Assembly: GCA_044432975.1 (NCBI GenBank)
Contig: JAWXUC010000003.1
Span: forward strand, 1,491 to 65,490
DNA from: Alphaproteobacteria bacterium
GTDB lineage: Bacteria > Pseudomonadota > Alphaproteobacteria > RF32 > CAG-239
Length of the DNA stretch: 64,000 nt
Direction: 5' to 3'
In this document: in pieces, positions 45,801-53,407 of the stretch
Layout of the letters: each line of letters starts with the position of its first letter
How positions within the stretch are numbered: position 1 is the first letter of the stretch
Program-made: the position numbers and the translations under genes
Notes under the pieces: generated by a model
Databases searched by the model: none
What the model was told of the DNA's origin: nothing
What the model saw: only the letters and a program-made list of their open reading frames with translations

Positions 45801-46252
45801 TCTAACAGTAAATGTCCGATAACACCATCAACGCCACCACTTAAGCAAATTATATCTTCATTATAAGTTTCTAAATCTGATAATAATAGCTCTGCATTAT
45901 TATCTAGATAAAAATGCTTCATGATATGCATTAAATTTTGATAACCAAGCTCTGATTTTGCAAGCAAAACAATTTTATGGGCTTCAAACTTGTGAATGCC
46001 TTTTGTTTTCATCTCATCATCATTATCATTATTATGTAAATCTAAAGTAACACCTAGAATCGGCTTTACTCCTGCCTTTGAGGCAAAAGATGAAAAAGCT
46101 TTTTGACCAAACATATTGTTTGTATCTGTAACGGCAATTGCTGGAGTATTAGCATCTTTTAATTTGCTTGCCAAAGTTTTAATCTGCATAGCACCTTGAG
46201 AAAGCGAATACGCACTATGAACTCTAAGATGTATAAACTTTGGCTCGCTCAT
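42821..46252 (-). CDS. dnaE: DNA polymerase III alpha subunit
   Basis: HLRVHSAYS, GRGSGAGS, PDFDVDF, FNKSH. Confidence 0.98.
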   Translation of the reverse strand: MSEPKFIHLRVHSAYSLSQGAMQIKTLASKLKDANTPAIAVTDTNNMFGQKAFSSFASKAGVKPILGVTLDLHNNDNDDEMKTKGIHKFEAHKIVLLAKSELGYQNLMHIMKHFYLDNNAELLLSDLETYNEDIICLSGGVDGVIGHLLLDNRQAEAEKNLVKLKDIFGDRFYLEVSRLGLEAEEKTEDKVIELAYKYNIPLVATNPVFFFDKSMHEAHDALACIAAGEYVSNEDRKKYSPECYLKSEEEMAELFKDLPEALNNTVLIAKRCSFYSEFVAPLLPPFDCNGVPEAEFIQTAAKEGLIARISHYPNYEEIKEEYFKRLDYELGVINKMGFAGYFLIVADFITWSKQNGIPVGPGRGSGAGSIVAWSLKITDLDPIQWGLLFERFLNPERISMPDFDVDFCQDRRGETIAYVQNKYGFDKVAQIITYGKLQSKAVIRDVARVLQMPYSQADRISKMIPAGAQGRNPTLPEALEQVPELEEMRVSDPQVNKLFDIAIKLEGLYRHSGVHAAGVVIGDRVLEKLVPLYKDPRADMPVTQYDMKFIEETGLIKFDFLGLKTLTVIKRAVDWIKKNHNVDIDLETLPLDDKEAYELLTRGDTAGVFQFESAGMKDVHQQIKPDRFEDLIAIVSLYRPGPMDNIPSYIKRKHGEEEVVYLHPALEPILKETYGIMIYQEQVMKIAQVLGGYTLGGADKLRKVMGKKMIDEIPKQRKMFIEGALENEITEEVAGAIFDQMEKFASYGFNKSHAAAYSLISYQTAYLKAHYPTEFMCATMDLDKGNTDKLAFFKDECVKMGIDVLQPDVNVSGSDFTVVDGKIAYALSAIKGAGDGGASSIENERKQNGNYKSISDFIKRSDYKSINRKLIENFIKAGAFDCLDNSRGKLFANLDTIIQNIAAATEEKNSAQMSMFGAETISQEVKLADKPDFANLEKLKLEAEAVGFYLSAHPLDNYKKAMEKLGVKKFSDIAQSIQAGDKIKANLAGCLNSLQIRTSQKGNKYGFLSLSDENTSFEGIVFSDTLDKCQSAINSGYPLFAQATVEKADEASSPRILFNNIKTIDGAISERANSLIIGVTNIEAVKKIKEIYNENRKSRNKIYIKVDNKDFDLRIELKEGLEINGSVISKLKSTAGVSFVEEI

Positions 46253-48147
46253 TAATATTTTGGCCCTGTCTCAACCTCTAAACCAAGATTGTCTCTATGA
46301 ATATAATTATCTAAACATTGAGAACCAACACAACGTTTTAATATCTCTACTTTTCTACCTTTAGTCAAGCCATTTACATCCATTGACGGAATATAAACAT
46401 TATTAATTAAGATATTAAATTCAACATAACCTACGTTGCCTTCTTTATCTGCAATATAAATCTTGATGTCATAGCTTCCGCCATCTGATGGTTTTGCAAC
46501 TCCGCTCAATGTGTGAGTTTCTTCATTCCAGTATAACCATTTTGGAAGAGGTCTATCACCTTTAAGTCCTGCTTTACTAATAACGTTTGCCACATTTACA
46601 CCCATTTTATTGAAAACAGCTTGAGGAATTGTGATGTTTATTCTTTCTCCTGTTTCTACATCAACATCTGGCATTAATGATGAGCTTAAATTAATTGGAG
46701 GACGTTTTACAGGAACATCTAACAAGTATGGACGATTGTCAGGTAAAAACTCGCCATTACGCCATTTTGTAAACTCTTTGCGCAAATAAACAGCTATTCT
46801 TGATATTTTTTCATCTAACATGTAATAAGGTAGTGCATCTAAACCTAATGTTACATATAAATTGCCTAATGAGTCTTGCAATTCTACATAAGCTTTCATC
46901 GCTTTAACTTCATCTTCTATAGCGGTTGCAGATTCTAAAGCACTTTTTGATGCGCTAACTCCGTCTGTTATTGTAACATCTTCTGCAATATCTTCTGATG
47001 TTAAAGCAATTTCTTGAGAGATTTGATAATCTTCTAAGCTAGAAACATATCTTGCCCATGCAACATAAACTTGATTTAATACAATACTTGTTAAACGTTG
47101 ACGACGTAAAGTTTCTAACTGAGATTCTGATGGAGATTGAATTTCTTCAAAGACTTGCAAACTAACATCTTTGGCTTCTTTTGACCATTTGCGATTGTAA
47201 TATTGAGGATCTTTTAAGTATTTTACATCTGAAACATTTTGTTCTTTTTTTACATATACTTTAACATCTTCTATATTTGTAACAAAATCTCTTAATCTTA
47301 GCTCTGGGCGGTTTGTTAATGCAACCCACTCTAACTGAGATAGATTGTTTTTAATAATTGGCAAATCAAAGTTTCCGTATTCTTTACCTACTAGGCTATA
47401 TGTTGTATTGGGATGAAAGCCCATTAATGAAGATAATTTTACTTCTGATGCTTCAAAACTACGTTTAAGGTCAGATAAATCTTTAACCGCATTCATGTAT
47501 GATCTTTTTAATTGCATTTGCTCTTGTGTTGGTAATTTGCCAACTGCTTGTTCTTCTAAAGCAACAGCGTTCATTTCATCTATTTCTAAAATTAAAAATT
47601 CTATCATATTATCTACTGTTGGGAGCAATTTTTGAGCTGTTAAGGTCTTCCAATATAATGAACGAGTTTCTTGCAACAAATTGTGTACAACTTTACGTCC
47701 TTCTTCTGTGGCAACTTTAGATTTTAACTCAACATCTTTTGACTGAAAATAAACAGATGATACGTCTAATGTGTTCCACGCAACTTTTAGCTCTGAGTTA
47801 ACGTCTTGATAGTCATTGATGTTTGTGTATCCTGCTTGAGAAATAATCTCTGGCAATTTATTAGCTGGGCTTTTGCCTGCATTTATAAGAGCTTGTTGAT
47901 AATCCATTAAGCGTTTTGAATAATTATATTTTAACGAAAGCGCCATTGCCATATACATATCTATTGGCTTGGTTATTTTGCGAGGAGTTGCAACAAACAT
48001 ATTTTGCAAATCAACGTCCGCCCTAATCGCCCTATCCCAATCAGAATACAATGCAGGCTGAATTGTAGGTTCTACTACTGCTTCTTGCTGTGGTGCTTGG
48101 CAAGCAAATAAAACCGCAACGACAATAAATGTCAAAAAATTTTTCAT
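46252..48147 (-). CDS. TolC-like outer-membrane lipoprotein with C-terminal Ig/cadherin-like domain
   Basis: Lipobox LFAC, helical efflux-type body (AL.NRPELR), LPKWLYW..ETHTLSG motif. Confidence 0.6.
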   Translation of the reverse strand: MKNFLTFIVVAVLFACQAPQQEAVVEPTIQPALYSDWDRAIRADVDLQNMFVATPRKITKPIDMYMAMALSLKYNYSKRLMDYQQALINAGKSPANKLPEIISQAGYTNINDYQDVNSELKVAWNTLDVSSVYFQSKDVELKSKVATEEGRKVVHNLLQETRSLYWKTLTAQKLLPTVDNMIEFLILEIDEMNAVALEEQAVGKLPTQEQMQLKRSYMNAVKDLSDLKRSFEASEVKLSSLMGFHPNTTYSLVGKEYGNFDLPIIKNNLSQLEWVALTNRPELRLRDFVTNIEDVKVYVKKEQNVSDVKYLKDPQYYNRKWSKEAKDVSLQVFEEIQSPSESQLETLRRQRLTSIVLNQVYVAWARYVSSLEDYQISQEIALTSEDIAEDVTITDGVSASKSALESATAIEDEVKAMKAYVELQDSLGNLYVTLGLDALPYYMLDEKISRIAVYLRKEFTKWRNGEFLPDNRPYLLDVPVKRPPINLSSSLMPDVDVETGERINITIPQAVFNKMGVNVANVISKAGLKGDRPLPKWLYWNEETHTLSGVAKPSDGGSYDIKIYIADKEGNVGYVEFNILINNVYIPSMDVNGLTKGRKVEILKRCVGSQCLDNYIHRDNLGLEVETGPKY

Positions 48148-48340
48148 AACAAAACCTCTTTAAAGATATATATATTTTTTGTCAGGATATATTAATAGTT
48201 GAAAACTTACAAGTCAAAAAACAAAACAGTTAACAAGTTTAAGATTTTCAAAATTTTGTCAAAAAACATATTGACGAATCGCAAAATTTGTGGTATATCA
48301 TATTTACAAATTTTATAAACAATTATAATTATTAAAAAAA

Positions 48341-48670
48341 ATGGCAAATCTATTAGATCAAAGAAGAACAGAGTACTTGAGAGTATCGCTGCATTTAGAG
48401 AAAGGACGAACTTATTTTGCACTTGCAACCTATGATCGTCGTTGGATGCACATGTATGATGTAGACCTCGCGGCACAGCGACACAGTTTTACTTCTGAAG
48501 AGAAGTTTATAGAAGCTTGTTGGCAAGAAGGTTTCACAAAGTGTGAGCACATAAAGTTCGCCTATGACAACCACAAGCCAAAGGAATTCTATGCTGTACC
48601 TGTTGGGCAAGTGCCTGTTGCAGAGGTTGATGGAACAGTATACACAACTTCTGTTAAAAACGTAATCTAA
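48341..48670 (+). CDS. Hypothetical protein
   Basis: 109-aa ORF preceded by TTGACG-17-TATATC. Confidence 0.5.
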   Translation: MANLLDQRRTEYLRVSLHLEKGRTYFALATYDRRWMHMYDVDLAAQRHSFTSEEKFIEACWQEGFTKCEHIKFAYDNHKPKEFYAVPVGQVPVAEVDGTVYTTSVKNVI

Positions 48671-48806
48671 TTAAAAAAACAATTATGCAGAAAAACTTAG
48701 TTGTAAAAAATTAAGCCTGCAAGAAATTGTTAAGCAAAAACCTAGAAGACATTTATTGTCATCTAGGTTTTTCTGTTTTTAAGGATGTTGTGGATTGGCT
48801 TCACTT

Positions 48807-48829
48807 CTCTGGGCTTTAAATGCCCAGAG
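48807..48829 (-). promoter_or_regulatory. DGR homing hairpin downstream of VR1
   Basis: CTCTGGGC-7 nt-GCCCAGAG, identical to the hairpin after VR2. Confidence 0.8.
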
Positions 48830-48849
48830 CTAATAGTTAAATTGATTAA

Positions 48850-49428
48850 TTAAAAAGCCAAGACACACCGACCACTATAGTTTGTACCAGGAGCGTAGTA
48901 GTTGTAGAGGCTGCCATCTGACAGCCTCGCAACATTACGGTTAGTAGTGATGCGATAATCGCGCGAAGACGACCAATAATATTCAGATGAGATTAAATCT
49001 GTTGATAATTTAGCATTTAATGTTGCAAATTTACCATTACTAACACAATCATTATCTGAAGTACCATAACAAGGATATTGCAAACCCATTGGAATTAATT
49101 CTGCTATTGTTGGCAAATGCCAGTCTCCGGCAGAGGTGCCTGTGGTTGTATAACTAGCGCAATTAGTCATTGCCTCATCCCAACTTGCAGTATTTTCCCA
49201 TTGATCTAAACTCATTACGTTAAATACTTTGGGGTTGCCGTTTAATACCCAATATATTAAACCTATTGTAGTTGATGTTTCTTCTGTTGAGCATGTGCCA
49301 TCAGCATTAAACCACATTCCAACCGCAGCGTTTGTACACTGGCTGTTTATGGCATTGGCATTGGTTGTTACTAAGAGGCTTAAGCCAAAGAATGAGGTTA
49401 ATAATATTTGTTTTATTGAGCTTTTCAT
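48850..49428 (-). CDS. DGR target protein 1 (secreted, CLec/DUF1566-like)
   Basis: Signal peptide, WHLPTIAEL, YWSSS, terminal RCVLAF; contains VR1. Confidence 0.9.
   Translation of the reverse strand: MKSSIKQILLTSFFGLSLLVTTNANAINSQCTNAAVGMWFNADGTCSTEETSTTIGLIYWVLNGNPKVFNVMSLDQWENTASWDEAMTNCASYTTTGTSAGDWHLPTIAELIPMGLQYPCYGTSDNDCVSNGKFATLNAKLSTDLISSEYYWSSSRDYRITTNRNVARLSDGSLYNYYAPGTNYSGRCVLAF
48853..48981 (-). repeat. DGR variable repeat VR1
   Basis: 129 nt; 13 mismatches to TR, all at TR adenines. Confidence 0.95.
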
Positions 49429-49458
49429 TTACTTTCTCCTTTTTTGTTTTTTAGTTGC

Positions 49459-49722
49459 GGAACGTCGAGGACGCCGTTCCCTACAGTTTTTGTTATGCGT
49501 GGGACATCGAGGACACCGTTCCCTACAATTTTTGTTATGCGTGGGACGTCGAGGACGCCGTTCCCTATAATTATTATTGTCATCGCGTCACAAAATTTAT
49601 TTTGGGGCTTAGCGATCTTCAAATTTTTATAATAATTTATTTTTTATTAGCTGCGGAACGTCGAGGACGCCGTTCCCTACAGTTTTTGTTATGTGCGGAA
49701 CGTCGAAGACGCCGTTCCCTAC
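49459..49722 (-). repeat. Array of five GTAG-type REP palindromes (42-bp period)
   Basis: GTAGGGAACGGCGTCCTCGACGTTCC-like units at 49459, 49501, 49543, 49655, 49697. Confidence 0.85.
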
Positions 49723-49741
49723 AGTTTTAAAATACCACCCT

Positions 49742-50995
49742 TCAGCTCGGCATTCTACTGAACTTATAAGGTTTCTTCCGATTACAATCACCACCCAACA
49801 AGAATTGATCATAATAATCCCTGCTTCCTTTTAAGGATATTTTTTTACAAGATGTAGTATATTTAAAATTTTTCATAATAGGCAAAGACAACATATTAAT
49901 TGCTTTTCTTCTAATATTAAAAGAATTATAATGCCTCATAAGACCCAAATAAGAATTAACGCAATTTCTAACATCTTTTAATAAATTATCATCTATTGGT
50001 TGGTTATTTAAATACATAATTTTGTTATAAAAATTTGTTTTGGTTCTATTACCTACATACACTCTGTTTTGTTTTAAATATCCACCAATATATAAAAGAC
50101 CTTTTGAATAGTGTTGAATATATATTTTTTTAGGATGCAAAATTAAACCTAAATCTTTATACAAAAACTCTTTAATTAAATTTATTTGTAACAATAAAAA
50201 TTGCTTGTCTTTGTCAATTAAAACAAAATCATCTACATAACGACCATAATATTTTATTTTAAGCTTATGTTTTATAAAATAATCTAACTGTGTTAAATAT
50301 ATGTTTGCTAAAATTTGAGAAGTTAAGTTACCAATTGCCAAACCTTTATTTTTTTTAGAAAAAAACATACTTTTATCTTTTGGCAAAGTATTCCAATCTT
50401 TTATATTAGAACAAATATTTGCATTTAATGTTGGATTGTTAAAAATAACTTTTTCATATAAATACAAAATTATTTTTAAATCTGGCTTTTTATAATATTC
50501 TATTAATATTTTTTTTACCATTTTATAAAGAAGCACTTTATCTATATTCATAAAAAAAGCTTTTATATCTAATTTTAAAACATAACAATCTGTTGTATAA
50601 TTATTAGAGCATTCACTAATTTTTTTATATATTTCTTTTTGACCATACAATGTGCCTTTTCCATACCGACAAGAATAACTATCTTTAATAAAATATTTTT
50701 CAAAAATATCTATTGTTTTATTAATTAACAAATGATGCACTACTCTATCTTTAAATTCTGCTGCAAAAATTTCTCTTTTTACGGGTTTATTAACTATAAA
50801 ACATGAAGATTGTTGAGGAAAATATTTATAATCATTAATATCTTTCCACAAGCTTATTAAATTATCTTCATAATCTTGCTCAAACATTAATGCTGTTTTT
50901 TTTGTTCGTTTGTTTTTTCTACAATCATAATAAGCCTGAAATAAATCTTCTAAGCTTATTGTTTTATCTTCATTAATATCAAACAAATATTCCAT
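49742..50995 (-). CDS. DGR reverse transcriptase
   Basis: KREI, DRVVHH, LDIKAFF, GLAIGNLTSQ, RYVDDF. Confidence 0.95.
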   Translation of the reverse strand: MEYLFDINEDKTISLEDLFQAYYDCRKNKRTKKTALMFEQDYEDNLISLWKDINDYKYFPQQSSCFIVNKPVKREIFAAEFKDRVVHHLLINKTIDIFEKYFIKDSYSCRYGKGTLYGQKEIYKKISECSNNYTTDCYVLKLDIKAFFMNIDKVLLYKMVKKILIEYYKKPDLKIILYLYEKVIFNNPTLNANICSNIKDWNTLPKDKSMFFSKKNKGLAIGNLTSQILANIYLTQLDYFIKHKLKIKYYGRYVDDFVLIDKDKQFLLLQINLIKEFLYKDLGLILHPKKIYIQHYSKGLLYIGGYLKQNRVYVGNRTKTNFYNKIMYLNNQPIDDNLLKDVRNCVNSYLGLMRHYNSFNIRRKAINMLSLPIMKNFKYTTSCKKISLKGSRDYYDQFLLGGDCNRKKPYKFSRMPS

Positions 50996-51045
50996 AATAC
51001 ATCTCTCTTAACTAATTATATAGCAAAATATCTAATTAAAATTAT

Positions 51046-51174
51046 AAAAGCCAAGACACACCGACCACTATTGTTTGTATTAGTAGCGTTGTTGTTGTTG
51101 ATGTTGCCATCTGACAGCCTCGCAACATTACGGTTAGTAGTGTTGTTATAATTGCGCGAAGACGACCAATAATA
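51046..51174 (-). ncRNA. DGR template repeat (TR)
   Basis: Non-coding, between avd and RT; 39 adenines, 13 AAY triplets in the VR frame; matches both VRs. Confidence 0.95.
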
Positions 51175-51293
51175 ACTATTATATTAGCTTTACAGTAAAA
51201 AATTACTGTTAATAGTCCTTTTTTAATTTTAATAACGCTCTCTCTTGATGTTTAATTAATATTAATACAACAAGACTCTGGCAAAATATTTTG

Positions 51294-51647
51294 CTATATA
51301 ATTACTTTTTTAATACTGCTTTTCCAAGCTGTTGCTTGCTTTCCAATTGATTCTAATAAAACTGATATAACTACTAATGATTTTATAGACATTATATTCA
51401 TATCTTTACACAACCTTATTCTTAATTTTATTTCATAATAATTTTCTAAAAACTTTTCTAAATCTGCTGTTTTTTCTTCAGAAACATTTGCTTTATAAAT
51501 ATATAAAAAAAGGTTAAATGTTTTTTCTCTAATCTCTTGTCCTAAACCATATTTATGCTCCTTTGTAAATTTATTAGTTATTCTATAAACCTCAATTAAG
51601 AGTTTATAACATTCCTTATATATTCTTAAATTTTCTGCTAATGCCAT
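51294..51647 (-). CDS. avd: DGR accessory variability determinant (Avd-like four-helix bundle)
   Basis: 117 aa, basic; IYK..Y.L, KF.KEHKY.LG..I, IGKQ..AW; directly upstream of TR. Confidence 0.85.
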   Translation of the reverse strand: MALAENLRIYKECYKLLIEVYRITNKFTKEHKYGLGQEIREKTFNLFLYIYKANVSEEKTADLEKFLENYYEIKLRIRLCKDMNIMSIKSLVVISVLLESIGKQATAWKSSIKKVII

Positions 51648-51666
51648 TTATACTCCTTTCATTCAT

Positions 51667-51691
51667 GCTCTGGGCTTTAAATGCCCAGAGC
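51667..51691 (-). promoter_or_regulatory. DGR homing hairpin downstream of VR2
   Basis: GCTCTGGGC-7 nt-GCCCAGAGC. Confidence 0.8.
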
Positions 51692-51710
51692 TAATAGTTA
51701 AATTGATTAA

Positions 51711-52385
51711 TTAAAAAGCCAAGACACACCGACCACTACCGCTTGTACTAGTAGCGTAGTAGTTGTTGACGTTGCCATCGGACAGCCTCGCAACATAACG
51801 GTAAGTAGTGTAGTCATAATAACGCGAAGACGCCCAATAATATTCAGATGTTATTAAATCTGTTGATAATTTAGCATTTAATGTTGTGAATTGACCATCG
51901 ACACTGCTTACGCATGATGCTTCATCACCACTAACACTACATGGATATTGATTGCCCATTAATATTACTTCACTTATTTCTGGCAAGCGCCATACGCCTG
52001 TGCAAGCACTATAAGCTGTGGCAAAGTTAACATTCTCACTTTGCGTTAAGCTCATTACCAAACCACCTTTAGCACTTGGGCTAACCCAATAAACTAAGCC
52101 GATTGCGTTTGAGGTATCACTAGAAGAGCAAGTGCCATCTGCATTATACCAAACACCAACTGTTGCACATGACACAACATCAGGGCCTGTATAAGTAGAA
52201 CCGCAATACATTTTGCTGGTATCAAAGGGGCATTTTATGGAATTACCTTCACAACTGGTTTCTGTATAACCCAATTCTGCACAGTTTGATGCAACAGTGC
52301 AGGTGTCTGTTGCAGAGCTCATACCTGAGTTTAGGAGGAAAGTTAGACCTATTGTGCCTCCTGTTATTATTTTTATTTTATTCAT
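51711..52385 (-). CDS. DGR target protein 2 (secreted, Cys-rich, CLec/DUF1566-like)
   Basis: Signal peptide, CAELGY..SC...KCPFD module, WRLPEISEV, terminal RCVLAF; contains VR2. Confidence 0.9.
   Translation of the reverse strand: MNKIKIITGGTIGLTFLLNSGMSSATDTCTVASNCAELGYTETSCEGNSIKCPFDTSKMYCGSTYTGPDVVSCATVGVWYNADGTCSSSDTSNAIGLVYWVSPSAKGGLVMSLTQSENVNFATAYSACTGVWRLPEISEVILMGNQYPCSVSGDEASCVSSVDGQFTTLNAKLSTDLITSEYYWASSRYYDYTTYRYVARLSDGNVNNYYATSTSGSGRCVLAF
51714..51842 (-). repeat. DGR variable repeat VR2
   Basis: 129 nt; 15 mismatches to TR, 13 at TR adenines. Confidence 0.95.
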
Positions 52386-52409
52386 TTTTATTTCCTCCTT
52401 TTTTTAGCT

Positions 52410-53395
52410 GAGGAACGTCGAGACGCCGTTCCAGATATTTTTTTGTGGACACCCACAAGGGGCGTCCCTACAGTTTTTTATTATGGGTGGGACGCCGAGG
52501 GCGTCGTCCCCTACAATTTAATCACACCGTCATTGCGGACTTGATCCGCAATCCAGTTGATAACCATTACTTTTCATCTTCCCCACCGAGCTAAGGGAAG
52601 TGCCCGTTAGGGCAATGAGGGGAGTATAATAATTATTTTTCCTTTTTTATGGAGGACGGTCAATGACCGCCCCTACACTTTTTGGTTGCGGAACGTCGAG
52701 ACGCCGTTCCCTACAATTTAGCCCTCAACTGTCATTGCGAGCGAAGCGCGGCAATCCAATCGAAACAACAATCATTTTCAGGTACGGTCAAGACCGTACC
52801 CTACAGGGCTCCGCCCCAAACCGTCATCCTGAACTTGTTTCAGGATCCCATTTTAGATGCTGAAACAAATTCAGCATGACGGGACAATTAATCCTTTTTG
52901 CGGGACGGATATAAAATCCACCCCATAACTACCCCGTCGCCTTCGGCGCCACCCTTCACTTGTGAAGGGGAATTTTTAATGGGCTTTTTTGCAAAAAAGT
53001 GCAAAAATTGCGTTTTTTGGTGGATATGGGCAGAAAATAAATACTTTGGGAGGATTATTGACTGCCCATAAGCCCATATATTCTGGTATTTTGACACCTG
53101 CCTTAAAAAGAAAGTGTCTATTTTAAACCACCGTCTAGAATAGACACTTTTAATGTTACAGTTTTGTGAAATTATGTTATTGATTTTACTTATTTCTTGA
53201 TTTTTTTTAAAGTTTGTGATAGTGTCTATTTTAAACGGTCGTTTAAAATAGACACTGCAAAAACAACCCCTAGCCCTTGTGGGCTGGGGGTTTGAAGTAT
53301 GTTCAAAAAGTGTGTTTTTTAGTGGGACGCATACAATGCGTCCCTTACATAAAATTGTTAAATTTAAAGGTACGGTCAAGACCGCACCCTACAGG
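52410..53395. repeat. Dense cluster of REP/MITE-like palindromes of several families
   Basis: Seven or more GG...CC(CTAC) hairpins, GTCATTGCG and GTCATCCTG units, twin AGTGTCTATT...AATAGACACT palindromes. Confidence 0.75.
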
Positions 53396-53407
53396 GTGAG
53401 GTTTAAC

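Follow-up and report, generated by a model that had tools for sequence, protein, structure and literature searches.

Does the stretch of alphaproteobacterial DNA described here carry a complete diversity-generating retroelement (DGR) that belongs to the cell rather than to a phage, and is that element still diversifying its targets? The window, by which we mean the whole 64,000-nucleotide stretch analysed (positions 1,491–65,490 of contig JAWXUC010000003.1, assembly GCA_044432975.1, lineage CAG-239), contains at 48807–52385 two candidate target genes, an accessory variability determinant gene (avd), a template repeat (TR) and a reverse transcriptase (RT) gene, which an earlier note made from the letters of the DNA had read as an active, cellular DGR. 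Our analysis supports a complete chromosomal DGR of the avd-TR-RT type, with two targets placed one on each side, the first upstream of avd and the other downstream of the RT gene, at a probability of roughly 0.9. The reading draws on an RT of the DGR clade, an Avd protein, adenine-specific differences between the TR and two variable repeats (VRs), the location of both VRs at the C termini of lectin-fold proteins, and an adenine-free repeat end that has a hairpin downstream of it in the VRs but not in the TR.

All five parts lie at the coordinates and on the strand first claimed for them, the open reading frame (ORF) list and the minus-strand sequence being in agreement. Read along the minus strand, target2 (224 aa, 51711–52385) encodes an N-terminal hydrophobic, signal-like segment with a Cys-rich module and a C-terminal Lcl_C/C-type-lectin-like domain, and its last 43 codons constitute VR2 (51714–51842). 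There follow avd (117 aa, 51294–51647), the TR (129 nt, 51046–51174), the RT gene (417 aa, 49742–50995) and target1 (192 aa, 48850–49428), a secreted-looking C-type-lectin-fold protein of which residues 150–192 constitute VR1 (48853–48981). Both VRs are 129 nt long and align with the TR without gaps. The TR contains 39 adenines and 13 AAY codons and its final 23 nt are adenine-free, as the earlier note had counted, and the frame 1 translations of TR, VR1 and VR2 reproduce those given in that note exactly. The TR and VR1 differ at 13 positions, all of them TR adenines (hypergeometric p 3e-8, with 39 adenines in 129 columns), and the TR and VR2 differ at 15 positions, 13 of them TR adenines (p 2e-6). 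VR1 and VR2 differ from each other at 18 positions, 16 of which are TR-adenine columns; this fits the proposal that the two proteins are diversified independently. The TR adenines fall mainly at the first two codon positions (20 at position 1, 17 at position 2 and 2 at position 3) and, as computed from the TR, 24 codons are variable, about 6e21 protein variants are reachable and no stop codon is. A BLAST search of the whole assembly (1.64 Mb, 25 contigs, 32% GC) with the TR returned VR1 and VR2 only. Outside the TR homology, the 56 nt 5′ of VR1 (48982–49037) and of VR2 (51843–51898) show two differences although the target proteins are only 56% identical, which suggests that a target 3′ segment may recently have undergone duplication or gene conversion.

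The sequences bordering the repeats have the asymmetry expected of homing signals. The adenine-free 23-nt end, which resembles an initiation of mutagenic homing (IMH) element in the VRs and its counterpart IMH* in the TR, is identical in TR, VR1 and VR2. From the very next base the TR has a sequence of its own, while the VRs stay nearly identical to each other for a further 46 nt, and a GC-rich hairpin, or cruciform-type inverted repeat, lies within this shared segment. In DNA folding, the hairpin after VR2 (51667–51691, minus strand, 9-bp stem and 7-nt loop, 22 nt past the target2 stop codon) has a predicted energy of −11.4 kcal/mol (z −2.7), and the hairpin after VR1 (48807–48829, minus strand, 8-bp stem and 7-nt loop) has −11.3 kcal/mol (z −3.1); no hairpin was found in the sequence 3′ of the TR (z −0.09), and a terminator scan found no T-run after the VR hairpins. 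The same folding applied to BPP-1, the Bordetella phage with a well-known DGR, gave a hairpin of 8 bp with a 4-nt loop downstream of the mtd VR, whereas nothing downstream of its TR was similarly significant, consistent with the IMH/IMH*/cruciform asymmetry described for that phage (as summarised in PMC5758913). At its other end the TR is directly abutted by a predicted, conserved two-helix RNA leader (51175–51218, minus strand). When 16 TR modules drawn from six genomes are aligned, the leader has 13 pairs, seven with compensatory changes, and 95% of the cells are paired, in a data set where modules from tandem arrays are paralogs and the structure was derived from the same sequences that were scored. 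None of 500 shuffles reached this level of pairing, and slid controls were far lower. The leader fold is also the minimum free energy structure of the window sequence, with a z of only −1.26.

The RT carries both of the motifs claimed for it, IGNLTSQ and YVDD, and matches Pfam RVT_1 and PHROG 1423 (2.7e-82). Its best match in the PDB is 8ub7, a 328-aa reverse transcriptase (E 1.4e-24), the next being a group II maturase (1.8e-05). We placed it in a maximum-likelihood tree of 17 RTs comprising the window RT, a second RT of the same genome, five homologs and one weaker homolog (G022) from the same family, the RT of a locus in an uncultured Micavibrio metagenome-assembled genome (MAG), the annotated Brt of BPP-1, the RT of Bacteroides phage F2, three group II RTs and three retron-like RTs; a further same-family RT (G012), interrupted by a stop codon, was excluded. 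The 11 DGR-type RTs, BPP-1 Brt and the Bacteroides phage F2 RT among them, lie on one side of a branch with support of 100/98, and the six group II and retron-like RTs, clustering with which had been named beforehand as evidence against a DGR, fall outside this clade, the retron-like RTs being separated from the window RT at 100/100. A G-x-x-x-S-Q motif is present in 11/11 of the DGR-type RTs and in 0/6 of the outgroup RTs. On this phylogeny, the RT belongs to the DGR clade as judged from its protein sequence. The nearest named RTs in a phage collection are those of Bacteroides phages and uncultured faecal phages (40–43% identity), and the Micavibrio MAG RT is 37% identical. The product of avd matches Pfam bAvd (PF22296; 9.4e-16, 58.7 bits, over the cut-off of 40) and PHROG 3206, ‘Avd protein of DGR’ (2e-21).

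The targets are less readily classified by sequence search than by fold. A word-index search with target1 retained 2 of 84 candidates, target1 itself and a paralog, and a sequence search of the PDB gave a chance-level match (E 0.29). By profile search among 1.84 billion representatives, 291 relatives were found at E ≤ 1e-3 and 17 at E ≤ 1e-10; from the best 150 of the 291 we picked by eye 41 short homologs matching across the C-terminal domain, and 36 of these 41 match Lcl_C. An AlphaFold2 model of target1 built from the 41-homolog alignment has a mean predicted local distance difference test score of 85, and its top Foldseek match is the C-terminal domain of Legionella Lcl (8q4e_A; E 1.8e-05, template modelling score 0.78 by target), followed by many C-type lectins and, weakly and at rank 30, by Mtd (1yu2). 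In this model VR1 forms the last five strands. Because most of the aligned homologs match Lcl_C and the best fold match is the Lcl C-terminal domain, we read the targets as divergent Lcl_C/DUF1566 relatives.

The N-terminal module of target2 (about 65 aa, comprising the signal-like segment and the Cys-rich motif; 52182–52385), which no Pfam family covers, occurs in 18 copies in the genome. The 18 proteins that bear it are 180–280 aa long, and most have a lectin-like C terminus with an R-C-V/I-R-x-F tail as in the DGR targets. The DGR targets of related genomes bear the same N-terminal module. By these sequence features, this expanded 18-member paralogous family is the putative pool from which DGR targets are drawn.

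Whether the element is active was examined in four public runs of one study, labelled fish gut metagenome, of which two are DNA (X1 and X2) and two RNA libraries (X3 and X4); their contigs were compared with the window over 48700–52500. In X1 and X2, two extra short contigs cover the VR region (48848–48989) at depths of about 7 and 5 of 22 and carry 18–19 differences, so that at least three VR alleles are present, and along about 3.5 kb of long flanking contigs no difference is seen. All nine of the VR-region variant positions among those listed fall on TR-adenine columns (p 1e-5). At several positions the variant letters match neither VR2 nor the TR; the alternative contigs are therefore new alleles and not cross-mapped copies. 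VR alleles varying at TR-adenine columns between invariant flanks suggest recent retrohoming; the support is good, though short of decisive. That contigs break at the TR and VRs is no evidence either way, since the 31-mers these repeats share would make an assembly break there. Contigs from X3 and X4 cover target1-RT-TR and avd, but such contigs do not show transcription. Scans with the RT yielded five metagenome loci and one viral locus at 30–31% identity, with no other strain for VR comparison.

Three features of these assemblies were considered as signals and rejected. An RNA-library contig ending in the TR with four VR1-like letters was a candidate retrohoming intermediate and is read instead as the assembler having walked across the 38 nt shared by TR and VR1. 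An apparent 196-nt skip (49455–49652) lies within dispersed repeats and is probably a repeat collapse, and differences at 52199–52359 derive from the N-terminal module of a paralog.

Several points weigh against the reading of the locus as an active DGR, or qualify parts of it. Two VR2 mismatches, both near the 5′ end, fall outside adenines: TR position 10 (T>G) and position 21 (C>T). Avd scores 55 bits (7.6e-15) with NCBIfam DivGenRetAVD, under the cut-off of 80, and both targets are below the Pfam Lcl_C cut-off of 34.9 bits, target1 by a small margin (33.6 bits, 5.1e-08) and target2 more clearly (23.7 bits, 6.1e-05). Signal peptides were assessed by eye only. As to activity, the nine VR variants are those among the entries listed, with 36 further entries for the whole stretch, and the support comes from assembled contigs, not from raw reads. 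Because the alternative contigs share flanks with both VRs, they are not assignable to VR1 or VR2; a slightly longer one among them shows two additional differences, which would fit an origin from VR2. All four runs belong to a single study, and the sample behind the genome may be among them, so they are not independent of the genome.

The alternative that survives these considerations best is an intact but currently silent DGR, in which the VRs acquired their differences in the past and the alternative contigs come from long-diverged co-resident strains. It is compatible with contig-level data from a single study and with RNA-library contigs over RT, TR and avd that are no proof of transcription. 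However, all ORFs are intact, and flanks without a difference over about 3.5 kb beside three or more VR alleles, with every listed variant position on a TR adenine, are the pattern expected of recent retrohoming; we therefore consider silence unlikely. The claim of the earlier note that the element is active thus stands in so far as alternative VR contigs vary in the adenine-specific manner between invariant flanks, but at the level of contigs only.

The chromosomal setting bears on a second alternative. The locus is flanked by the genes for DNA polymerase III alpha (dnaE, 1438 bits) and GlmS (743 bits), as had been proposed, but neither is its immediate neighbour: a gene for a 631-aa Ig-domain protein (46252–48147) lies between dnaE and the cassette, and a repeat-rich spacer (about 52400–53400) lies between target2 and glmS. 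Comparison within the genus delimits an accessory island at 48148–53407 (5.3 kb), between the 631-aa gene and glmS. In one same-genus genome (G002, 75% complete; locus L049), glmS is separated from the 631-aa gene by a gap of 97 nt and dnaE comes next, the slot thus being empty, and in another (G001, 81% complete; L050:1929–5444) the slot holds a gene for a 1171-aa autotransporter-like protein. Since the slot is empty in the one and occupied by a different gene in the other, the slot is a variable one for surface-protein genes, and the cassette is an accessory island within it, not a prophage. The claims that the element is cellular and has no phage genes next to it are borne out by the dnaE and glmS flanks, by Pfam searches that found no phage family in any of the 10 neighbouring ORFs, and by the empty slot in G002.

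That second alternative is a tropism-switching DGR like that of BPP-1, borne by a phage or prophage and residing in a degraded prophage. Within the phage collection, the named RTs most similar to that of the window do come from Bacteroides and uncultured faecal phages (40–43% identity), and the island is missing from one same-genus genome. Yet the 5.3-kb island contains DGR parts and repeats only, in addition to the lack of phage families in the 10 flanking ORFs; the targets are small, signal-bearing members of an 18-member chromosomal family and not tail fibres, and the scan of viral contigs gave one relative at 30% identity. A phage-borne element is, on this evidence, very improbable. Across the family, RT homologs are found in 7 of 24 other genomes, six at 48–53% identity and one at 31%, and none was found in the two same-genus genomes, both of which are incomplete. 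The ORFs neighbouring the DGR loci of relatives resemble recA or ligA by eye. From these different neighbours and the patchy distribution of RT homologs, the DGR appears to move or to be lost within the family.

A retron, group II intron or defence RT beside three paralogous segments homogenised by gene conversion, which could be entertained from PADLOC matches to DRT models and from NCBIfam matches of the RT to group II (TIGR04416, 84 bits, cut-off 300), retron (NF038233, 49 bits, cut-off 235) and Drt models that are all far under their cut-offs, is scarcely credible given the position of the RT in the DGR clade (100/98), an Rfam scan of the window in which, at gathering thresholds, a tRNA was the only match, neither the TR leader nor any group II or retron RNA being hit, and the fact that gene conversion would not limit 26 of 28 differences to the adenines of a single non-coding copy.

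We return to the preferred reading, a complete chromosomal DGR, and to how it would work. By analogy with BPP-1, we infer that the TR would be transcribed with its structured 5′ leader and 3′ flank, and that an RT-Avd complex would copy it into cDNA with misincorporation opposite template adenines. The cDNA would then replace the last 43 codons of target1 or target2, with homing probably guided by two signals, the adenine-free, IMH-like last 23 nt and the hairpin that lies downstream of each VR and is missing downstream of the TR. As the targets are small, apparently secreted, Lcl_C-like lectin-fold proteins from an 18-member family, the element most likely serves to vary ligand or surface binding in the gut.

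The same genome contains a second DGR, the RT of which (RT2) is 57% identical to the window RT and is its sister in the tree at 100/99. RT2 and its template (TR2, at about C14:752–928) lie at the start of contig C14 (C14:1–2210; locus L012). Between TR2 and a VR at C7:94085–94261 (within C7:93594–94548; L011), 22 of 25 mismatches fall on adenines, the remaining three being beyond the end of the repeat; a hairpin of the same shape as those of the window, with another stem sequence, follows this VR. Two near-identical avd genes stand beside Lcl_C-like targets, one on C7 and one on C1 (C1:88375–89731; L010), and the C1 target matches the last 54 nt of TR2 only. The assembly breaks inside an avd copy, and the apparent parts of this second DGR lie on C14, C7 and C1.

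Related genomes have multiplied the template. Between avd and a single RT gene, one genome (G010; L024:5789–7354) has a tandem array of six TR modules and another (G013; L026:8646–10560) an array of seven; tandem-repeat analysis gave at least five modules in a third (G008; L005:6–1462), for which we rely on L005, Tandem Repeats Finder having reported no array at a min_score of 200 in L025, which represents the same place. The array module has a period of 264–279 nt and consists of a conserved leader, a distinct AAC-rich body and a common 3′ end. Several modules have VRs from which they differ wholly or mainly at adenines. In G013, all 10 mismatches between TR1 and a VR on another contig (C7:55882) and all 13 between TR4 and an adjacent VR (C26:14187) are at adenines, and in G010 the TR2 module differs from an adjacent VR at 18 positions, all adenines, and from a remote VR at 23, of which 20 are adenines. 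Other VR-like matches are without a clean TR partner (7 of 10 in G013 and 2 of 4 in G010). We found no description of tandem multi-TR arrays in open-access main texts, where the only related case was the two-TR DGR of Stenotrophomonas SKA14.

These arrays put the window element in a wider frame. The odds appear even that it is the single-template state of a lineage with a portable template module (leader, TR and IMH*-like end) that has been amplified in sister genera. With both ends common to all modules, many templates could be served by a single RT. Templates might even be exchanged at one and the same VR, so that the choice of cassette would come on top of adenine mutagenesis. If the arrays are functional, they would extend the sequence space that a DGR can reach.

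Two further observations concern the composition of the locus. Dispersed palindromic, GC-rich repeats of about 26 nt occupy intergenic spacers inside or beside both DGRs, including about 52400–53400 and the spacer between the RT gene and target1 (49459–49722), which holds five copies on the minus strand (5 matches versus 0 expected). With 29 loose matches on nine contigs and 88 matches to a short core, these repeats are genome-wide and lie outside the DGR mechanism. The GC content of the RT gene is 21–24%, compared with 32% for the genome and about 38% for both target genes. A promoter and terminator scan was uninformative (23 promoter-like sites versus 19.9 expected, and 0 terminators).

The locus offers a clean, natural, cellular DGR in a reduced, gut-associated genome of 1.64 Mb, in which two lectin-like, secreted-looking proteins are diversified and for which public data hint at activity in situ. 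Both target proteins are candidate host- or prey-surface binding factors, and at about 3.6 kb the locus is a compact test system. Little about the element itself is novel; the features of its lineage are moderately so, and the wider value of the locus lies in the relatives, with their TR-abutting structured leader and multi-TR arrays served by one RT.

Among known systems, the DGR of BPP-1 (mtd-avd-TR-brt) is among the closest. The order target-avd-TR-RT, a VR at the C terminus of a C-type-lectin-fold protein, a GC-rich hairpin after the VR and not after the TR, and the RT motif I-G-x-L-T-S-Q are common to both, and the TRs are of similar length (129 nt here and 134 nt in BPP-1). The best PDB match of the window RT is, as noted, the 328-aa RT of 8ub7. 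In contrast to the phage-borne BPP-1 element, that of the window is chromosomal and has a second target downstream of the RT gene. The TR-RT gap is shorter (50 nt versus 144 nt), the hairpin loop longer (7 nt, 22 nt past the stop codon, versus 4 nt) and the RT larger (417 aa versus 328 aa), and the targets are small secreted-looking proteins where those of BPP-1 are tail fibres. The RTs of Bacteroides phages F1, F2 and F4 are the nearest named ones (40–42% identity), with avd annotated upstream, and a Bacteroides phage RT shares a clade with the window RT at 99/99, although those DGRs are phage-borne and that of the window is not.

With respect to its targets, the element resembles the Legionella pneumophila DGR and the DUF1566/CLec2 class, which, as far as these are described in the sources available, are likewise cellular, of the avd-TR-RT type and equipped with a variable domain of the Lcl_C/DUF1566 kind; the nearest solved fold to target1 is that of the Legionella Lcl C-terminal domain. 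The target of the Legionella DGR is a lipoprotein, and that DGR is carried on a mobile island. The window element differs from it in having two targets in its cassette, both shorter and under the Pfam Lcl_C cut-off. In the survey data given by Wu et al. (2018, PMC5758913), 48 DGR architectures are described, avd-TR-RT is the commonest core (68%), and DUF1566-type targets, category ‘d’ with the Legionella example, account for 14%. Service of more than one target is also on record: the DGR of Stenotrophomonas SKA14 is reported to combine two TRs with six VRs that lie in DUF1566 genes (PMC6642488), and, as in other two- or multi-target DGRs, a single TR here serves two adjacent DUF1566-like targets, which in the window flank the core, one on each side. 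Since two-target cassettes and targets of this class are already described in these sources, the element of the window belongs to a known kind, well-formed but ordinary.

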